Source: Eubacteriales bacterium | Lineage (GTDB): Bacteria > Bacillota > Clostridia > Oscillospirales > CAG-272 | Direction of reading: 5' to 3' | DNA length: 51,734 nt | NCBI GenBank assembly: GCA_045606685.1 | Contig: JAZUSJ010000058.1 | Location: 1 to 51,734, forward strand | In this document: one piece after another, positions 10,082 to 16,033 of the stretch | How the letters are laid out: every line of letters begins with the position of its first letter | How positions within the stretch are numbered: position 1 is the stretch's first letter | The notes under the pieces: generated by a model | Database searches by the model: none | What the model was told of the DNA's origin: nothing | What the model saw: the letters and a program-made list of their open reading frames with translations, nothing else | Translations under genes and position numbers: made by a program

Positions 10082-10111
10082 AAGGGTGCCGCTTCGGTGG
10101 CGCCCTTTTTC
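10082..10111 (+). terminator. Intrinsic terminator after XRE gene
   Basis: AAGGGTGCCGC-TTCG-GTGGCGCCCTT followed by a T run. Confidence 0.8.
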
Positions 10112-10233
10112 TCTGCGTTCACACTAATTTCGAAAAAATATGGTATAATTTTTTATAACGATGCAATGTGAAGCTATGTTTTCCTGTATAGTAGGGTGAA
10201 AGGCTTTCAAATAAACGCGAAGGGAGGATCATT

Positions 10234-10794
10234 ATGACAGACGAAAAAATTGTGGAATTGTATTGGGAACGTTCCGAAGAAGCAATTAAAGAAACCGATA
10301 AACAATACGGTCGATATTTTCACTATATCGCAAAGGAGATTCTTCAAGACGAAGAAGATGCAAAAGAAATTGTCAATGACACATATTTGAAAGCGTGGAA
10401 TTCAATCCCGCCCGAGAGACCTAACCCCTTAAAAGCATTTCTTGGACGAATAACAAGACAGCTTTCTCTCAATCGACTTGAGCAGAATAAAGCACAAAAG
10501 CGCGGTGGCGGACAGTATCTTCTTGCACTTGATGAGCTTGCGGAGTGCATCCCCGATGGCAGCGGGAGTGAAGATCTCGCATCCAACATTGATTTAACAG
10601 ATGCAATCAATCGGTTCTTGCGAAGCTTGCCTATCGAACAGAGGCGAGTATTTATCAAGAGATATTGGTATATGAGTTCTATTACCGATACCGCAACTTC
10701 TTTTGGCATGAGTGAAAGCAAGGTTACGTCGATCCTCTTTCGTGTTAGAAACAAACTGAAAGAACATCTTACAAAGGAGGGCTTTGATTTATGA
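10234..10794 (+). CDS. ECF sigma-70 factor (pair 1)
   Basis: DEKIVELYWERSEEAI, EIVNDTYLKAWNSIPP (region 2); FIKRYWY..SI..TA...G.SESKV...LFR.R.KLK (region 4). Confidence 0.92.
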   Translation: MTDEKIVELYWERSEEAIKETDKQYGRYFHYIAKEILQDEEDAKEIVNDTYLKAWNSIPPERPNPLKAFLGRITRQLSLNRLEQNKAQKRGGGQYLLALDELAECIPDGSGSEDLASNIDLTDAINRFLRSLPIEQRRVFIKRYWYMSSITDTATSFGMSESKVTSILFRVRNKLKEHLTKEGFDL

Positions 10795-11525
10795 AAAAGA
10801 AAAACATATCTGATGCACTGAATAACATAGATTTCGATATGGTCGAAGATGTGTATGAGTGCACAAAAACAAATATGAAAAAGCCAAAGAGTATATGGCT
10901 TAAATGGGGGGCAATTGCTGCTTGCTTTGCGGTCGCGTTCATAGCTGTTGCGGGAATTGCGTTTCACGGATTTTTTAATAAACCCGTCTATTTGGAAAAC
11001 GGCAAGATCGACATATCATCCTTGTCGGGGGCGCAGATTATGCAAAGTCCGCCCGATGTTTCTCAAGGAATCAACGGAGATATTTATCCTGCCGATGAAT
11101 TTGTTTCCATTCTGAAGGAAAGAACAGATTTGATAGTGTACGGAACGATACAAAACTTAAAAACAGTTAAGGTCGATGAATTAGGTGCATATTCATGGTA
11201 CGTTTCCACATTTGAAATTCATGTTATTGATGAAATTCGTAATGGAGATGGAACACAGATCATCACAGTTGTTTCTGCTGCGCGCTACTATGACGATATG
11301 CCGGAGTATATTTGTGGTCTGTCGAGCAATTTTGATCTTGCGGAGTCTAAGGCGGGACTCTTTGTTATGAGAGAGAATGCAGACGAAACGTGGCGTATTG
11401 CTGGTGCGAACTTAATCGTTGCAGAATTGGGTGATTATCGTGCAAGTAGCCAATTTGAATGCAACGGCGAAAACTTTAATTATTTTGGCGAACTGATTGA
11501 TTTGGATGAGCTGAAAGAGGAATAA
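10791..11525 (+). CDS. Putative single-pass anti-sigma factor (pair 1)
   Basis: ATGA overlap with the sigma stop; short cytoplasmic N-terminus (ISDALNNID), TM segment WLKWGAIAACFAVAF, ~180-aa extracellular domain. Confidence 0.75.
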   Translation: MKKKNISDALNNIDFDMVEDVYECTKTNMKKPKSIWLKWGAIAACFAVAFIAVAGIAFHGFFNKPVYLENGKIDISSLSGAQIMQSPPDVSQGINGDIYPADEFVSILKERTDLIVYGTIQNLKTVKVDELGAYSWYVSTFEIHVIDEIRNGDGTQIITVVSAARYYDDMPEYICGLSSNFDLAESKAGLFVMRENADETWRIAGANLIVAELGDYRASSQFECNGENFNYFGELIDLDELKEE

Positions 11526-11562
11526 GATACTTTGAATGTGTTTGCACAGTAAAATACTTTTT

Positions 11563-11588
11563 AAGGCGAGCGTGGAAACGCTCGCCTT
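11563..11588. repeat. 26-bp palindromic junction repeat, copy 1
   Basis: AAGGCGAGCG-TGGAAA-CGCTCGCCTT, followed by ATTTGAAAT. Confidence 0.9.
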
Positions 11589-11590
11589 AT

Positions 11591-11619
11591 TTGAAATCCG
11601 CGCTAAAATATGTTATAAT
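11591..11619 (+). promoter_or_regulatory. sigmaA promoter for ECF pair 2
   Basis: TTGAAA-17 bp-TATAAT with TG extension, directly abutting repeat copy 1. Confidence 0.8.
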
Positions 11620-11722
11620 ATAAAAAATCCAAAAAACTTTAAAAAATTATTACACACTTTCAAGATTTTTGGTACTACTATTTATGAAGGGCCTTTCAAA
11701 AACGCGAGGAAGGAGGCGAGTT

Positions 11723-13806: not shown

Positions 13807-13821
13807 CTGTATAAGAATAGC

Positions 13822-13847
13822 AAGGCGAGCGTTTCAGCGCTCGCCTT
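13822..13847. repeat. 26-bp palindromic junction repeat, copy 2
   Basis: AAGGCGAGCG-TTTCAG-CGCTCGCCTT, followed by ATTTGAAAT. Confidence 0.9.
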
Positions 13848-13849
13848 AT

Positions 13850-13878
13850 TTGAAATTTCCTCAAAAATATGTTATAAT
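13850..13878 (+). promoter_or_regulatory. sigmaA promoter for ECF pair 3
   Basis: TTGAAA-17 bp-TATAAT with TG extension; AAAATATGTTATAAT is identical to the pair 2 promoter. Confidence 0.8.
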
Positions 13879-13953
13879 TATTTTTGAAAAGTGTAAGATT
13901 TCGTGTTTTCGATTGTATTAAATAGTGAATCGATTCAAAAGAGAGGTGAGACT

Positions 13954-14514
13954 ATGGAGGACAAAAAATTACTGCGACTACTACATAAAGACCCGAACGC
14001 TGGAATGGAACAATTATTGAATCAATACACAGGTCTTGTTTATGCTGTTGTCAAAAGCAAGCTTGACGGTTCTTTCTATGTTTCATCTGATCTTGAAGAC
14101 TGTGTGGCAGACGTATTCAGCAAATTCTATACAGAGCTTGCAGACTATGATCCTGCAAAGTCGAGTATCAAATCCTATCTGTGCGTCATCGCACGTAATC
14201 ATGCAATCAATGTTGCCAAGAAACGAAGCCTTGAAGGTGGTATTTCTCTTGATGACGAGCAATCTCTTTTGCAGATTGCAGATGATGTGATGATCGACAG
14301 CGAGCTTGCCGATGAGGAGCTTCGACGCGAGGTTATTAGGGCGGTCGAGGATCTCGGAGAGCCGGACTCAAGCATCATCTTCCGTAAGTATTATTATGGT
14401 GAGTCCTCAAAAGAGATCGCAAAGGCCACCGGACTTTCTGTTTCAAATGTGGATACGCGAACACACAGAGCCTTAAACAAACTACGTAAAATGTTTGGAG
14501 GTAATGAGGTATGA
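13954..14514 (+). CDS. ECF sigma-70 factor (pair 3)
   Basis: DLEDCVADVF, SIKSYLCVIARNHAIN, RKYYYGESSKEIA...G.SVSNVDTRTHRAL.KLR; ATG 13954 with GAGGTG RBS. Different subfamily from pairs 1 and 2. Confidence 0.92.
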   Translation: MEDKKLLRLLHKDPNAGMEQLLNQYTGLVYAVVKSKLDGSFYVSSDLEDCVADVFSKFYTELADYDPAKSSIKSYLCVIARNHAINVAKKRSLEGGISLDDEQSLLQIADDVMIDSELADEELRREVIRAVEDLGEPDSSIIFRKYYYGESSKEIAKATGLSVSNVDTRTHRALNKLRKMFGGNEV

Positions 14515-15989
14515 AGAAAACACTAAATCATATTTTTGACGAAGCGAATGCAGGTGAGATTGAAAATCTCGTCAAGCAGAACGCTGCGCCCGAAGTTTCG
14601 GCTGATACGCTTTCCTCTATCAAGGATAAGGTGTATGCCAAAACGAACTTAAAGAAGGAGAGGAAAACCAACAAAAACGTATGGTTTCGCTTTGGAGCAA
14701 TCGCAGCTTGCTTCGTGCTGATTTTGGGTGTAGTTATCGCTGTACCTATGTTACGAGAAGATGATCCGGGGGTTATTACTCCTCCCGATGAAACGAGCAA
14801 TGATATTGAAGAAAACTCGGAACCGGGAACTACGGATAATAACAGGCCAAATGTTCCGTCTTGGGATACGGCACAATATTCGGCAGAAGACATAGCAAAA
14901 ATCTTTGACTCTGTGAAATTTGACAGTGTGGCAACGAATGCTTATACGAAGATATATGTTCCTGATAGCAAGTATTTATATATCGGCAAAGTGACTGATG
15001 ATGAATACCTTAAATTATATCAACACACACAGATAGACAAAGAATTGAACGAGGTGGAATTGAAGGCATTCATTGATGCGTTTCTTCCTAAACTGGCCGA
15101 ATCTCTCAACGTACCGGTATCACAATATAATATCGAAGAAAACAATTATAGTACAGGCGACAACACGCTATCTGCCGATTTTGACATCGATCCGTTTTAT
15201 CTGTCGGTGTCACAAAATACGCAAAGGAACTCGTTGAGCTTTAGTACGTTGGGAAGTAACAGGCAAATTGCTATAGACGGAGAAACAATTCAGATTGACC
15301 AGCGTCTTTCCGATGAGGAGATTATTGATTCTATTCAATCTATAAAAAGTAAACTGTTCGGAATTTTCGGCATATCTTTTTCTAATGCAAAAGTAGTCAG
15401 ATACTATGGTTCCTATTCCAAGTATGGAGTAGAGCACATCGATATTTACTTTTATGATCAGAGCGCACACGAACTCAACTCGTCACAATCCAGACCAATA
15501 ACGGATTATATGTATATCAGCTTTGATAATTTTCCCAACTATTCCGGTGATATTGTAAGCGACAGTATACTTACGGTGTCTAGCGTATACTATTTAAAAA
15601 ATCGAAGCGATCTCGGCGACACCCAATATGACGTTGTCGCAAATGCAAAAAGAATATCCATAAGCGAAGCTGAGGCATTGCTGTATAATGGGTATGTTTT
15701 CGGAGGTCACTCTTGTCCTTTGTGTATGAAGGCTCAAGATAAAATAGACTTTGAAGGCTATGATTTTGTTGATATTGAATATGTGTTCGAATATAGCAAC
15801 GAAAACGGAACACCTTCGATCGGAATCCCGTTCTATGCATTTTATAAGAATATCGGAACTTCTGAGAATGGAAACACCATCTACGCAAAAACTTATGTGC
15901 CGGCGATAGAAGTCAGTGGATACAAGGAGTATTTTGAAAGTCAAAAAGATAATCACCGAAGCAATTGGGGCGTTGATGAAGTAGGATAA
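14511..15989 (+). CDS. Putative single-pass anti-sigma factor (pair 3)
   Basis: ATGA overlap; TM segment WFRFGAIAACFVLILGVVIAVPML; extracellular domain with a GGHSCPLCM motif. Confidence 0.75.
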   Translation: MKKTLNHIFDEANAGEIENLVKQNAAPEVSADTLSSIKDKVYAKTNLKKERKTNKNVWFRFGAIAACFVLILGVVIAVPMLREDDPGVITPPDETSNDIEENSEPGTTDNNRPNVPSWDTAQYSAEDIAKIFDSVKFDSVATNAYTKIYVPDSKYLYIGKVTDDEYLKLYQHTQIDKELNEVELKAFIDAFLPKLAESLNVPVSQYNIEENNYSTGDNTLSADFDIDPFYLSVSQNTQRNSLSFSTLGSNRQIAIDGETIQIDQRLSDEEIIDSIQSIKSKLFGIFGISFSNAKVVRYYGSYSKYGVEHIDIYFYDQSAHELNSSQSRPITDYMYISFDNFPNYSGDIVSDSILTVSSVYYLKNRSDLGDTQYDVVANAKRISISEAEALLYNGYVFGGHSCPLCMKAQDKIDFEGYDFVDIEYVFEYSNENGTPSIGIPFYAFYKNIGTSENGNTIYAKTYVPAIEVSGYKEYFESQKDNHRSNWGVDEVG

Positions 15990-16007
15990 TTGACAACAAT
16001 TGTGAGT

Positions 16008-16033
16008 AAGGCGAGCGCTTCCGCGCTCGCCTT
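16008..16033. repeat. 26-bp palindromic junction repeat, copy 3 (probably also a bidirectional terminator)
   Basis: AAGGCGAGCG-CTTCCG-CGCTCGCCTT between convergent stops at 15989 and 16046. Confidence 0.9.

Follow-up and report, generated by a model that had tools for sequence, protein, structure and literature searches.

The sigW-rsiW and sigV-rsiV operons are examples of the ECF sigma/membrane anti-sigma operons of Bacillota, and the SigI/RsgI systems of Clostridium thermocellum combine one signalling chassis with differing extracellular sensor modules. For units in tandem, integron cassettes and pdif modules provide defining features for comparison. The Bacillota systems are treated in sections of two RsiV studies (PMC4183432; PMC5014341), and the parts of a SigI/RsgI study used here describe many paralogous pairs in one Clostridia genome (PMC10328401). 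In polymorphic toxin/CDI/Rhs systems, as presented in portions of PMC3482391, a conserved N-terminal chassis carries a variable C-terminal module that recombination at a conserved linker replaces, and near-identical variable modules are found on different chassis. Pinto and da Fonseca (2020; PMC7671368) report that ECF families grow through whole-cluster duplication and horizontal transfer, and describe duplicated clusters in Bacteroidetes, C-terminal extensions in Planctomycetes, and genes transferred into Streptomyces; their text uses "tandem" 0 times, and exchange of anti-sigma extracellular domains is not described in the passages covered.

The stretch of DNA analysed here (51,734 nt; the window) belongs to an uncultured gut Clostridia genome of 2.9 Mb and contains three adjacent ECF sigma/anti-sigma units at 10234-15989 (Table 1). 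As in the Bacillota operons, translational coupling links a two-domain sigma (regions 2 and 4) to a single-pass anti-sigma, here through a 4-nt ATGA overlap in all three pairs; the common layout described in a first-pass annotation (gene order, overlaps, and hairpins) is present throughout. All three sigmas match Pfam Sigma70_r2, with r4 in addition for sigmas 1 and 3, and all reach the curated TIGR02937 cut-off. Sigmas 1 and 2 are 41% identical, while sigma 3 is 23% identical to either, in agreement with its earlier assignment to a different subfamily. Close counterparts occur in other genomes (all, like every genome compared here, metagenome assemblies), with amino acid identities of 96% for sigma 1 (G176), 95% for sigma 2 (G307), and 93-98% for sigma 3 (G279 and G176). 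In contrast to the Bacillota operons, the units contain no target genes, and there are 34 pairs in the 2.9-Mb genome. Neither Pfam nor NCBIfam has a family matching the anti-sigmas, and their extracellular domains (approximately 380-430 aa) have no relative among solved folds at Foldseek E <= 0.001; this includes the anti2 domain, ECD2. The number of paralogous pairs recalls SigI/RsgI, although the window sigmas are ECF-type rather than SigI-type; literature searches, limited to parts of their sources, returned no report of shared-junction tandem arrays, ongoing module exchange, or inter-genus spread. Expansion by duplication and horizontal transfer is a likeness to the families in the passages covered of PMC7671368.

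Table 1. Features of the array and its flanks, in window coordinates
Feature	Position	Strand	Remarks
mntP, manganese efflux	8586-9245	+	Left flank of variable interval; Pfam Mntp, E 5.4e-40
Hairpin and T-run	9251-9270	+	Terminates mntP here, not the palindrome; -23.4 kcal/mol
XRE-type HTH membrane protein	9399-10067	+	Pfam HTH_3; own promoter 9335-9363; GC 37.2%
Hairpin terminator T1	10082-10107	+	Upstream of unit 1; kept in G176; alignment start 10085
Extended -10 element, unit 1	10141-10149	+	TGGTATAAT; read from sequence
ECF sigma 1 (sig1)	10234-10794	+	Pfam Sigma70_r2, r4_2; TIGR02937 58.5 bits (cut-off 42.9)
Anti-sigma 1 (anti1)	10791-11525	+	244 aa, single-pass, short extracellular part; N-terminus/TM akin to anti2
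Palindrome P1	11563-11588	+	Loop TGGAAA; putative terminator of unit 1; -22.1 kcal/mol
Sigma-A type promoter, unit 2	11591-11619	+	TTGAAA-17-TATAAT, TG; 11/12 match
ECF sigma 2 (sig2)	11723 (or 11669)-12319	+	Pfam Sigma70_r2; TIGR02937
Anti-sigma 2 (anti2)	12316-13806	+	Carries extracellular domain ECD2
TM-coding block of anti2, conserved	12402-12525	+	Candidate recombination linker; 65-nt exact anti3 match at 12442-12506
Palindrome P2	13822-13847	+	Loop TTTCAG; putative terminator of unit 2; -20.5 kcal/mol
Sigma-A type promoter, unit 3	13850-13878	+	TTGAAA-17-TATAAT, TG; 11/12 match
ECF sigma 3 (sig3)	13954 (or 13903)-14514	+	Different subfamily; Pfam r2 and r4; TIGR02937
Anti-sigma 3 (anti3)	14511-15989	+	Carries extracellular domain ECD3
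TM-coding block of anti3, conserved	14654-14777	+	From alignments, breakpoint positions, and exact match to anti2
Palindrome P3	16008-16033		Loop CTTCCG; -28.2 kcal/mol on +, -25.6 on -
Lipoprotein gene, 1132 aa	16046-19444	-	Right flank of variable interval; 77-92% aa identity in congeners

The extracellular parts of the three anti-sigmas are without similarity to each other, as first noted, but the relatedness of their cytoplasmic and TM parts had been missed: those of anti2 and anti3 are 52% identical over 82 aa, and the DNA has a common 124-nt stretch at 88% identity, including a 65-nt exact match, a pattern in neighbouring units that suggests gene conversion. Hairpin, promoter, sigma, and anti-sigma N-terminus/TM make up the conserved block, and the variable cargo is mainly the extracellular domain. 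The earlier picture, with the whole sigma/anti-sigma pair as cargo between conserved boundaries, is not supported: the variable part is the extracellular domain, and breakpoints also fall within genes. A structural model of sigma 3 with anti3 residues 1-58, run on self-made alignments, places this short cytoplasmic N-terminus in contact with both sigma domains, a further predicted likeness to the Bacillota operons. Its ipSAE is 0.77 (best of three controls, 0.00), a mark that 58 of 80 solved complexes attain, as do 2 of 110 mismatched pairs; since solved sigma/anti-sigma complexes exist, this score may reflect likeness to them. Contacts agree at 89% or more between runs, with a partner pLDDT of at least 77.

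Each unit ends in an exact copy of the palindrome AAGGCGAGCG-N6-CGCTCGCCTT, which appears in none of 100 dinucleotide-preserving shuffles. A genome-wide scan (N6, up to 2 mismatches) finds only these three; a copy with a 7-nt loop lies on contig C47, 3′ of a related sigma/anti-sigma pair. The genome search suggested beforehand thus gives four copies, all after ECF pairs (4 of 34), and no genome-wide generic terminator, while unrelated bacteria use the same stem for ordinary termination. P3 separates the convergent anti3 and lipoprotein genes; T1, ahead of unit 1, is a different hairpin. Across the family, all 26 sites lie directly 3′ of a same-strand gene: an anti-sigma 3′ end at 17 and mntP at 6 (by tblastn), the other 3 being assigned by inspection. 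Downstream are sigma genes (13), XRE genes (3), the convergent lipoprotein gene (3), or no query gene (7); because this right neighbour varies, the hairpin belongs with the end of the upstream gene. The RNA hairpins are stable (-20.5 to -28.2 kcal/mol). At mntP sites of relatives, where the interval is empty or otherwise filled, stem changes on both arms preserve pairing (AAGGCGAAGCC/GGCTTCGCCTT in G308; AAGGCGACCTGC/GCAGGCCGCCTT in G306). We infer that the palindrome closes each unit, and in relatives also mntP, as an intrinsic terminator, although on the + strand all three copies fail the strict T-tail rule of the terminator scan (tail ATTTGAAA or GTTCATTC).

Each unit also has its own promoter. 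The sigma-A promoters earlier claimed for all units are near-consensus for units 2 and 3, where they adjoin P1 and P2 and are the top two sigma-70 matches within 8500-16300; unit 1 has an extended -10 only, the promoter scan giving no good -35. Though set between unrelated flanks, the P1 and P2 junctions, palindrome plus promoter, share 84% identity across 57 nt, bearing out the conserved non-coding junctions around divergent genes. They recur at 97-98% identity beside non-homologous genes (11562-11619 in G176; 13822-13878 in G305). Other arrays of the same genome also keep conserved junctions that lack this hairpin: in array C135 the junction is conserved at 92.6% across 149 nt, between sigmas that are 58-75% identical and anti-sigmas that are 37% identical or alike at the N-terminus only.

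The locus varies among relatives. Of 16 genus genomes searched, 14 have mntP, and in these the mntP-lipoprotein interval, bounded at the hairpin, is empty in 5, has other cargo in 3, 1-2 units in 5, and three in the window; the lipoprotein itself matches no Pfam or NCBIfam family. G307 reads mntP-P-unit2-P-lipoprotein (colinear with unit 2 at 93% over 2219 nt) and G093 mntP-P-lipoprotein, its lone hairpin being orthologous to P3 by the right flank, so that the two differ by one unit between hairpins and place the hairpin at a synteny breakpoint. In G176, of another genus, the order is cas1-cas3-cas2-like. The first-pass annotation had named a fixed locus and a generic terminator as outcomes counting against its reading; neither was found.

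The array is also AT-richer than its surroundings, as had been suspected: GC is 40.7%, against 37.2% for the XRE region, 49.7% for mntP, 49.3% for the lipoprotein gene, and 51.9% for the genome; in G176 the array has 38.9% and its flanks 37-40%. Modules of G000 are 91.6% (10085-10874), 94.5% (13819-14767), and 92.9% (15882-16036) identical in nucleotides to those of genus g18, while two his-operon proteins share only 60-69% amino acid identity with that genus. The XRE gene, within the AT-rich island, is 86% identical in nucleotides to copies downstream of units in G218, G309, and G310.

Exchange within units shows in two reciprocal chimeras, whose breaks lie at the hairpin and in the TM-coding block that the family conserves: L037 joins sig3 and anti3 nt 1-260 (91.6%) to anti2 nt 87-1491 and P (79%), and L020 joins sig2 and anti2 nt 1-187 (87%) to anti3 nt 341-1479 and P (88%). 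ECD2 proteins (n = 118) carry seven N-terminal types and ECD3 proteins (n = 118) three; among pairs at least 95% identical in the extracellular domain, the type differs in 4 of 124 and 42 of 137, respectively, and domains 99.5-99.7% identical occur on different cytoplasmic types (e.g., 99.5% between T3 and T2 for ECD2). The ECD2 tree implies 35 type changes (minimum 6; 53-57 in the five label shuffles listed out of 200), an upper-leaning count because the FastTree topology is poorly resolved among near-identical domains. The 49 usable alignment ends in the array (from alignments no shorter than 50 nt and no less than 80% identical) fall at P1-P3 (16), the -10/5′UTR edge (12), the TM blocks (14), T1 (1), and elsewhere (6), in classes set post hoc, with the data already seen, that span 685 of 5976 nt. 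Breakpoints inside coding sequence lie in the TM block and at nt 15882 in anti3.

The array probably consists of three self-contained ECF sensor units of a mosaic family, exchanged via short conserved linkers by homologous recombination or gene conversion; most likely it is ordinary homologous recombination, rather than an integron-like machine, that swaps sensor domains and whole units. The modules with separate histories would be the junction, the sigma with the cytoplasmic anti-sigma segment binding it, the TM-coding block, and the extracellular domain. Inside arrays, the palindrome abutting a near-consensus sigma-A promoter would form a compact junction of about 57 nt, and this junction, the TM block, and occasionally the extracellular domain's 3′ end would serve as linkers, the hairpin being one among several, with gene conversion keeping them homogeneous. 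The agent would be general homologous recombination or replication slippage, acting on DNA arriving by transfer. The linkers are short, with 26-57 nt in the junction and 65-124 nt in the TM block, close to the minimum that RecA-dependent exchange needs to be efficient. Homologous recombination gives no account of the first unit's entry into a unit-free site. As in the portions of PMC3482391 on polymorphic toxins, modules are replaced at a conserved linker, but the cargo here is a signalling sensor domain rather than a toxin, without an immunity gene, and the 3′ anchor is a terminator hairpin plus promoter rather than an orphan-cassette array.

Local tandem duplication and divergence, with junctions held by purifying selection on terminator and promoter and no exchange between genomes, would suit the frequency of tandem arrays in this genome (C135 x4, C55 x3, others x2), the constraints of pairing on stems and of function on promoters, and a within-window junction identity of just 84%. 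It is nonetheless quite unlikely; as sole explanation, which the first-pass annotation had also argued against, it is already contradicted by the 91-95% module identity to a genus with such divergent his proteins and the 11-point GC deficit; the varying unit content of congeners, the chimeras, the near-identical domains on different N-termini, and the recurrent junctions also oppose it. Shuffling might instead be an artefact of assembling or binning conserved repeats, given that every genome is a MAG, that adjacent units share the 65-nt repeat, and that public contigs over the locus are short, with many joints at repeats. These contigs were presumably built with k=31, and joints in them are weak evidence because that repeat can mislead short-k assemblers. 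Such an origin is extremely unlikely: when the proteins are clustered at 90% identity, either domain is found with every main N-terminal type in numerous distinct clusters, drawn from several sources (54/40/12 for ECD2; 91/14/13 for ECD3), L020 and L037 are diverged from the window modules (79-92%) and lie on 25-kb and 145-kb contigs, the G307 locus is a colinear single unit, and the longest exact inter-unit match in two other genomes checked (G176, G309) is 13-27 nt.

A further reading would make the palindrome a recombinase core site (integron attC-like, Xer/pdif-like, or for a hairpin-recognising HUH/Y1 enzyme), with an unlinked site-specific recombinase moving the cassettes. As in integrons and pdif modules, tandem units each end in an inverted repeat, number and order vary, and a one-repeat empty site exists; the 10-6-10 layout is reminiscent of such a core site, the arms are nearly invariant while the loops vary, and the genome encodes 12 tyrosine, 3 serine, and 3 Y1 enzymes. 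None of these is on C58, the contig of the array, or on C47, in line with the earlier remark that the window encodes no recombinase. Loops of 5-9 nt, unlike in sequence between partners, fit a fixed-spacer tyrosine-recombinase site poorly. As read from the sequence, the palindrome is perfect, lacking extrahelical bases or strand asymmetry, which would set it apart from the attC and dif consensus. Unlike cassettes, the units have their own promoters, and 20 of the 49 alignment ends are away from both the hairpin and the promoter edge, with 14 falling in TM blocks, 1 at T1, and 5 elsewhere; one more away from a junction, at the XRE end, was counted three times. The genome has just four hairpin copies, the array matches no plasmid, 0 viral contigs carry the site, and C135 conserves its junctions likewise with another sequence. 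Close sig3 relatives use other hairpins: among 13 loci, a regex finds a P-like hairpin in L160 only (a variant), and of five loci read, L154, L155, and L157 have other sequence at unit boundaries, the L159 and L160 contigs stopping short of the downstream hairpin. Site-specific movement is thus very unlikely; of the exchangeable sensor library first proposed, exchange among strains stands, and the integron- or pdif-like mechanism is not supported. Insertion/deletion boundaries do coincide exactly with the hairpin, as site-specific movement would also predict. An operator for a DNA-binding regulator, such as the array-associated XRE membrane protein, co-regulating adjacent promoters is exceedingly improbable: the inverted repeat does stop 2 nt before the -35 at two of three window sites (11588 vs 11591; 13847 vs 13850), and XRE-HTH membrane proteins stand beside arrays in two genera, but the distance between half-sites varies by 4 nt, a convergent gene without a promoter lies opposite 3 of the 26 sites, a further 7 have no query gene downstream, the unit 1 promoter lacks the palindrome in G000 and G176, and stem changes at orthologous sites are compensatory.

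For the family, exchange by homologous recombination at the linkers would let extracellular domains change sigma type, and would let whole units be gained, lost, and reordered. On the best reading of the sequences, the gene family spreads horizontally, and the array would be part of an AT-rich acquired island. Each unit may be a regulated membrane switch, its extracellular domain sensing a cue.

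The three sigma/anti-sigma units lie between mntP and a convergent lipoprotein gene (see table), on contig C58 of a metagenome-assembled genome of 2.9 Mb (279 contigs, 93% complete). All follow the same plan: a gene for an ECF sigma factor, a 4-nt overlap (ATGA), and a gene for a single-pass membrane protein, the putative anti-sigma factor. Each unit ends in AAGGCGAGCG-N6-CGCTCGCCTT, present in three exact copies (0 in 100 shuffles). A promoter, TTGAAA-17-TATAAT with a TG, abuts the first two hairpin copies, and these are the two best sigma-70-type matches of the region. The first-pass annotation, made from the sequence alone, had described the coupled pairs, the exact hairpins and the abutting promoters as they are found here. 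It had missed that the cytoplasmic and transmembrane parts of the anti-sigma factors are related to each other; units 2 and 3 have transmembrane-coding blocks with 88% identity across 124 nt, including a 65-nt exact tract.

Features of the mntP-lipoprotein interval (positions in the window)
Feature	Position	Strand	Remark
mntP	8586-9245		left border of interval
Hairpin terminator of mntP			3′ of mntP, before XRE gene
XRE-type HTH membrane protein	9399-10067
Second hairpin	10082-10107
Short palindrome, unit 1	~10198-10210		TGAA...TTCA type
Three sigma/anti-sigma units	10234-15989		between second hairpin and lipoprotein gene
Palindrome copy P1	11563-11588		after unit 1
Short palindrome, unit 2	11685-11698		TGAA...TTCA type, TGAAGGGCCTTTCA
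65-nt exact tract, unit 2	12442-12506		in transmembrane-coding block
Palindrome copy P2	13822-13847		after unit 2
TGTAAG-N16-(CGAA/TGTA) element	13892-13901		and ~16 nt downstream
Short palindrome, unit 3	~20 nt before sigma 3 start		TGAA...TTCA type, TGAATCGATTCA
65-nt exact tract, unit 3	14694-14758		in transmembrane-coding block
Palindrome copy P3	16008-16033		after unit 3
1132-aa lipoprotein gene	16046-19444	-	convergent; right border of interval

All three sigma proteins score above the TIGR02937 cut-off of 42.9 bits (58.5, 54.5, and 91.0 for sigmas 1 to 3); Pfam region 2 was recognized in each, and region 4 in sigmas 1 and 3. Having regions 2 and 4 only, and matching the ECF superfamily model, they are ECF sigma factors. 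In the membrane proteins a hydrophobic segment lies after 36-58 aa; neither these nor the 1132-aa lipoprotein matched any Pfam or NCBIfam family. In a model of the third pair, anti-sigma residues 1-58 sit between sigma regions 2 and 4 (score 0.77, best control 0.00; 58 of 80 solved complexes attain the mark for this score, as do 2 of 110 mismatched pairs). Runs on author-made alignments agreed in at least 89% of contacts, with a partner pLDDT of at least 77. The score supports the predicted binding but is not proof of it, and the model may pass by likeness, because solved sigma/anti-sigma complexes exist.

Several smaller features of the locus can be recorded here. Contigs from a public RNA run (X15) cover parts of sigma 1, anti-sigma 2, and sigma 3, a weak hint of transcription only. 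A permissive Rfam search over 9000-16300 gave just two sub-threshold chance matches. Between the sigma-A promoter and the ribosome-binding site of sigma 3-type units is an element, TGTAAG-N16-(CGAA/TGTA), conserved by eye in six aligned upstream regions (the window, L154, L155, L157, L159, and L160); it looks like an ECF-type autoregulatory promoter, but within the window is not above chance. Nor are the TGAA...TTCA palindromes just upstream of the ribosome-binding site in all three units above chance within the window; conserved in relatives, they may be operators or RNA elements. The flanking lipoprotein has two paralogs (~40% identity) on other contigs of the genome, C161 and C171.

The palindrome is special within this genome, but not across bacteria. 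Allowing up to two mismatches, its N6 form was found genome-wide only in the three window copies; a fourth, whose loop is 7 nt long, is found after a related pair on contig C47. These numbers do not fit a dispersed REP- or MITE-like palindrome, with tens to hundreds of copies per genome. The genome has 34 complete pairs of the sigma 1/sigma 2 family, and the remaining ones end in different hairpins or have none that a script detected. At least 118 stretches of the species-representative collection contain the 20 arm bases, most of these stretches being from GC-rich unrelated taxa, so that the bare palindrome is not diagnostic outside this clade; among the matches listed, 11 stretches encode relatives of the window proteins (tblastn), and one more (L070) was recognized by flank identity. 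In Marinomonas, Vibrio, Saccharibacteria, and others, the same arm bases look like ordinary terminators with A- and T-runs. The first-pass annotation had allowed that the palindrome might be a genome-wide generic terminator; in the present genome it is confined to four copies.

A terminator role seems reasonable in the clade itself. The window hairpins have predicted energies of -20.5 to -28.2 kcal/mol (z -4.3 to -6.9) and begin 16-38 nt after stop codons. At 26 of 26 clade sites the hairpin is 3′ of a gene end (an anti-sigma gene at 17, mntP at 6, and 3 assigned by inspection), while the downstream neighbor varies: a sigma gene (13), an XRE gene (3), the convergent lipoprotein gene (3), or none of the query genes (7). 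In the mntP hairpins of two congeners without units (G306 and G308), the outer AAGGCG/CGCCTT is kept and the inner stem is changed on both arms; in these orthologs, as in a unit hairpin on contig C55 that likewise differs on both arms, pairing is preserved, as judged by inspection without statistics. Stability, gene-end position, variable right neighbor, and compensatory changes fit a predicted intrinsic terminator. The weak point of this prediction is a modest U-tract: the tails are UUAUUUG (P1 and P2) and UUGUUCAUU (P3), with fewer than 5 T among 8 bases if the stem is taken to include the A-U pairs. The hairpin copies of G093, L067, L068, and others have TTTT runs. Loops at the 26 sites are 5-9 nt long; some are reverse complements of each other (CGGAAA in G176, from another genus; TTTCCG in G279, G305, L020, L070, and L099), which suggests that loops may occasionally flip between the inverted arms.

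Loci related to the array are found in Clostridia, Eubacteriales, and Oscillospiraceae from the guts of ruminants and other animals. Of the 16 genomes in the genus, 14 have mntP, and the mntP-lipoprotein interval was compared in all of these. It is empty in five (G093, G161, G270, G308, and G311), and in three contains other small cargo: an unknown gene of ~140 aa (G303, locus L133), an acetyltransferase-like gene, by eye (G304, L153), or an XRE-like gene with a 426-aa protein (G306, L152). One unit is present in G307, flanked by palindromes (P-unit 2-P), and in G305 (P-unit-other terminator); one unit plus an XRE gene in G218 and G310; two units plus XRE in G309; and XRE plus three units in the window. 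The empty interval of G093 has a single hairpin, with one mismatch, 5 nt after the mntP stop, and a right flank homologous to that of P3. From this comparison the interval is a general insertion hotspot between convergent genes. In G176, the array has the order unit 1-P-unit 3-P-unit 2-like, in an unrelated neighborhood with an rve fragment, a PIN gene, and another XRE-type gene. Since interval contents and the G176 order differ, units have been gained, lost, and reordered with boundaries at the hairpin, as the first-pass annotation had predicted.

The rve integrase-core fragment (195 aa, 15093-15680) and PIN-domain gene (15950-16408) of the G176 locus (L008) are ~1.7 kb upstream of its array, and hint at a mobile or rearranged neighborhood; no rve-type or PIN gene adjoins the window's array. 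An XRE-type HTH protein with membrane segments accompanies arrays in both genera (L008:5727-6923; the window; G218, G309, and G310). Its gene is downstream of the units in relatives and upstream in the window, and in G218, G309, and G310 the palindrome and a promoter of its own come before it.

At the DNA level the window and G176 share three stretches: the promoter, sigma 1, and the start of anti-sigma 1 (91.6% identity); P, the promoter, sigma 3, and the N-terminal and transmembrane parts of anti-sigma 3 (94.5%); and the last 126 nt of anti-sigma 3 with P (92.9%). By contrast, two his-operon proteins of the same two genera are 60-69% identical, and even within the genus the interval flanks of G093 are only 70.7% and 86.8% identical to those of the window. 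The AT-richness of the block remarked on at first reading is real, with 40.7% GC in the array and 37.2% in the XRE region, vs. 51.9% for the genome; together with the identity across genera, this points to a horizontal origin. The G176 array and its flanks have 37-40%, and another ECF array of the window's genome, on contig C135, has 51.6%. The array had no match in the plasmid collection, leaving a pdif-style plasmid location without support, and just one, trivial, in the phage collection (179 nt at 70.5%, to an unannotated 4.3-kb record); no IMG/VR contig had the palindrome.

Exchange also occurs within units. Each block of high identity starts with the hairpin, continues across promoter, sigma gene, and anti-sigma N-terminus, and takes in the whole transmembrane block, beyond which the extracellular domains differ. 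In G176 a close relative of sigma 1 (96% aa identity) is paired with a domain like that of anti-sigma 3 (ECD3; 39%), and one of sigma 3 (98%) with a domain like that of anti-sigma 2 (ECD2; 28%). Two species representatives have reciprocal chimeras of units 2 and 3: L037 combines sigma 3 and the anti-sigma 3 N-terminus with ECD2 and P, and L020 combines sigma 2 and the anti-sigma 2 N-terminus with ECD3 and P. In both, the switch is in the transmembrane block and alignments end at the hairpin. The 49 usable alignment ends in the array fall at hairpins (16), the -10/5′UTR edge (12), transmembrane blocks (14), the second hairpin (1), or elsewhere (6); these classes were chosen after seeing the data, and so are given no probability.

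The two domains have many relatives in the protein collection, all unnamed: 328 for ECD2 (E ≤ 1e-5) and 539 for ECD3 (E ≤ 1e-10). For 118 of the best 120 in each family, an N-terminus and a transmembrane segment could be recognized and a cytoplasmic N-terminal type assigned: seven types for ECD2 (54, 40, 12, 5, 4, 2, and 1 sequences) and three for ECD3 (91, 14, and 13). On the ECD2 tree the type changes 35 times, vs. a minimum of 6 and 53-57 in label shuffles (five values of 200). Within these best-120 sets, pairs with at least 95% domain identity differ in N-terminal type in 4 of 124 cases (ECD2) and 42 of 137 (ECD3), the closest being 99.5% and 99.7% identical, respectively. Near-identical extracellular domains on different N-terminal types, together with the chimeras, therefore indicate that exchange between sigma types is recurrent and recent. 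An AlphaFold2 model of anti-sigma 2 with ECD2 (30-row alignment, mean pLDDT 79.8) gave no Foldseek match in the PDB at E ≤ 0.001, and the highest-ranking rows, with TM scores of at most 0.16, are not meaningful (Tc toxin, lyases, kelch, and others). For ECD3, the nearest ESM Atlas clusters are “hypothetical protein” of Bacillota (best score 0.92), a lead only.

The agents suggested by these patterns are homologous recombination and gene conversion, which would shuffle modules at short conserved linkers; units between direct hairpin copies may be lost or duplicated by recombination or replication slippage. Junctions (hairpin plus promoter) are 97-98% identical beside non-homologous genes, and the 65-nt exact tract, in an otherwise diverged block, looks like a recent gene-conversion tract. 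It could be argued that the shuffling is an assembly artefact, all of the genomes being metagenome assemblies. Twenty rows for public runs contain part of the window, all assembled contigs from animal gut samples, and contigs of X1, X3, and X5 (DNA) and X15 (RNA) have joints at the transmembrane block and junction, including two that “go back” and one from P3 to P1 with a foreign 7-nt loop. These are read as other arrangements in other strains, or short-k chimeras, and not as circles; little weight is put on them, because short-k chimeras across the 65-nt repeat are possible. The many independent protein clusters, however, and the diverged chimeras on long contigs, make artefact unlikely as the whole explanation.

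The integron-like or pdif-like exchange proposed in the first-pass annotation is not supported. As it had noted, no recombinase is encoded in the window: tyrosine, serine, and Y1 recombinase genes are absent from C58, and also from C47, neither having any of the 12 PF00589 matches, so there is no IntI with attI and Pc beside the array. Integron cassettes are promoterless, each ending in an imperfect attC with extrahelical bases; here each unit brings a promoter of its own, and the palindrome shows perfect symmetry. A pdif/Xer module uses a 28-bp dif site on plasmids, with two 11-bp arms and a fixed 6-bp spacer, and does not fit the 10-bp arms, the variable loops, and the lack of a plasmid match. 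An unlinked enzyme acting on the hairpin would place the boundaries of whole-unit gain and loss exactly where they are found, and recombination at linkers does not explain how a unit first enters a site that had none. Against any system of integron or Xer type, however, breakpoints also fall inside coding sequence, and related units do without the palindrome. A metagenome scan with sigma 3 gave 24 loci, of which 15 were examined (13 at 35-93% identity and two fragments): by regex, just one of the 13 (L160) has a P-like hairpin, a variant, and the unit boundaries of L154, L155, and L157 have other sequence or other hairpins. The C135 array has no palindrome, but its junctions (5085-5233 and 7942-8090) are 92.6% identical over 149 nt; its sigma factors are 58-75% identical (aa), and its anti-sigma factors 37% identical or alike at the N-terminus only. 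Such an enzyme is accordingly considered very improbable. Returning to recombination at linkers, a further reading is that the junction and transmembrane-coding block are kept up as recombination linkers, not merely by function, leaving chassis and sensor domains interchangeable; this is possible, if somewhat doubtful. Its bolder version would have an unlinked hairpin-recognizing enzyme assist insertion and loss of units at the palindrome.

Nearly all of the 34 sigma 1/sigma 2-family pairs in the genome have the 4-nt overlap, and several arrays of two to four units occur; contigs with pairs include C135 (257-10774), C55, C47, C44, C277, and C165. Their extracellular parts are ~200-950 aa long, and mostly unrelated to one another.

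Searches of openly available full texts yielded no description of such arrays, of the palindrome, or of exchange of anti-sigma extracellular domains; nor did passages of an account of ECF evolution (PMC7671368) describe the arrays or the exchange. The parts are ordinary: ECF sigma factor, membrane anti-sigma factor, intrinsic terminator, sigma-A promoter. Less ordinary are the organization and dynamics, of a horizontally spreading mosaic family of sensor modules, with recurrent re-pairing of extracellular domain and sigma chassis, at a chromosomal hotspot with 0-3 units. Integrons are a more distant likeness than the replacement of modules in polymorphic toxins or the multi-paralog SigI/RsgI sensors of C. 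thermocellum. A lesson for annotation is that perfect conservation of a palindrome at the borders of cassettes does not by itself make it a recombination site.

Among the chief means by which bacteria sense their environment are ECF sigma/anti-sigma pairs, whose new input specificities are mostly treated as arising by slow duplication followed by divergence. In the present family, one extracellular domain (up to 99.7% identity) is connected to different sigma factors from strain to strain, units are gained and lost as wholes at a single chromosomal hotspot, and modules cross genus boundaries. If this is true, gut Clostridia would frequently re-pair the input, or what is sensed, with the output, or the regulon that responds. 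For the two large families of extracellular domains no fold relative or ligand is known, and strong ecological selection evidently acts on them. If the junction and transmembrane block do serve as linkers, a plug-and-play sensor library would be spreading between genera of gut Clostridia and be reshuffled within short times; it would resemble polymorphic toxin cassettes, with signal perception as its role.
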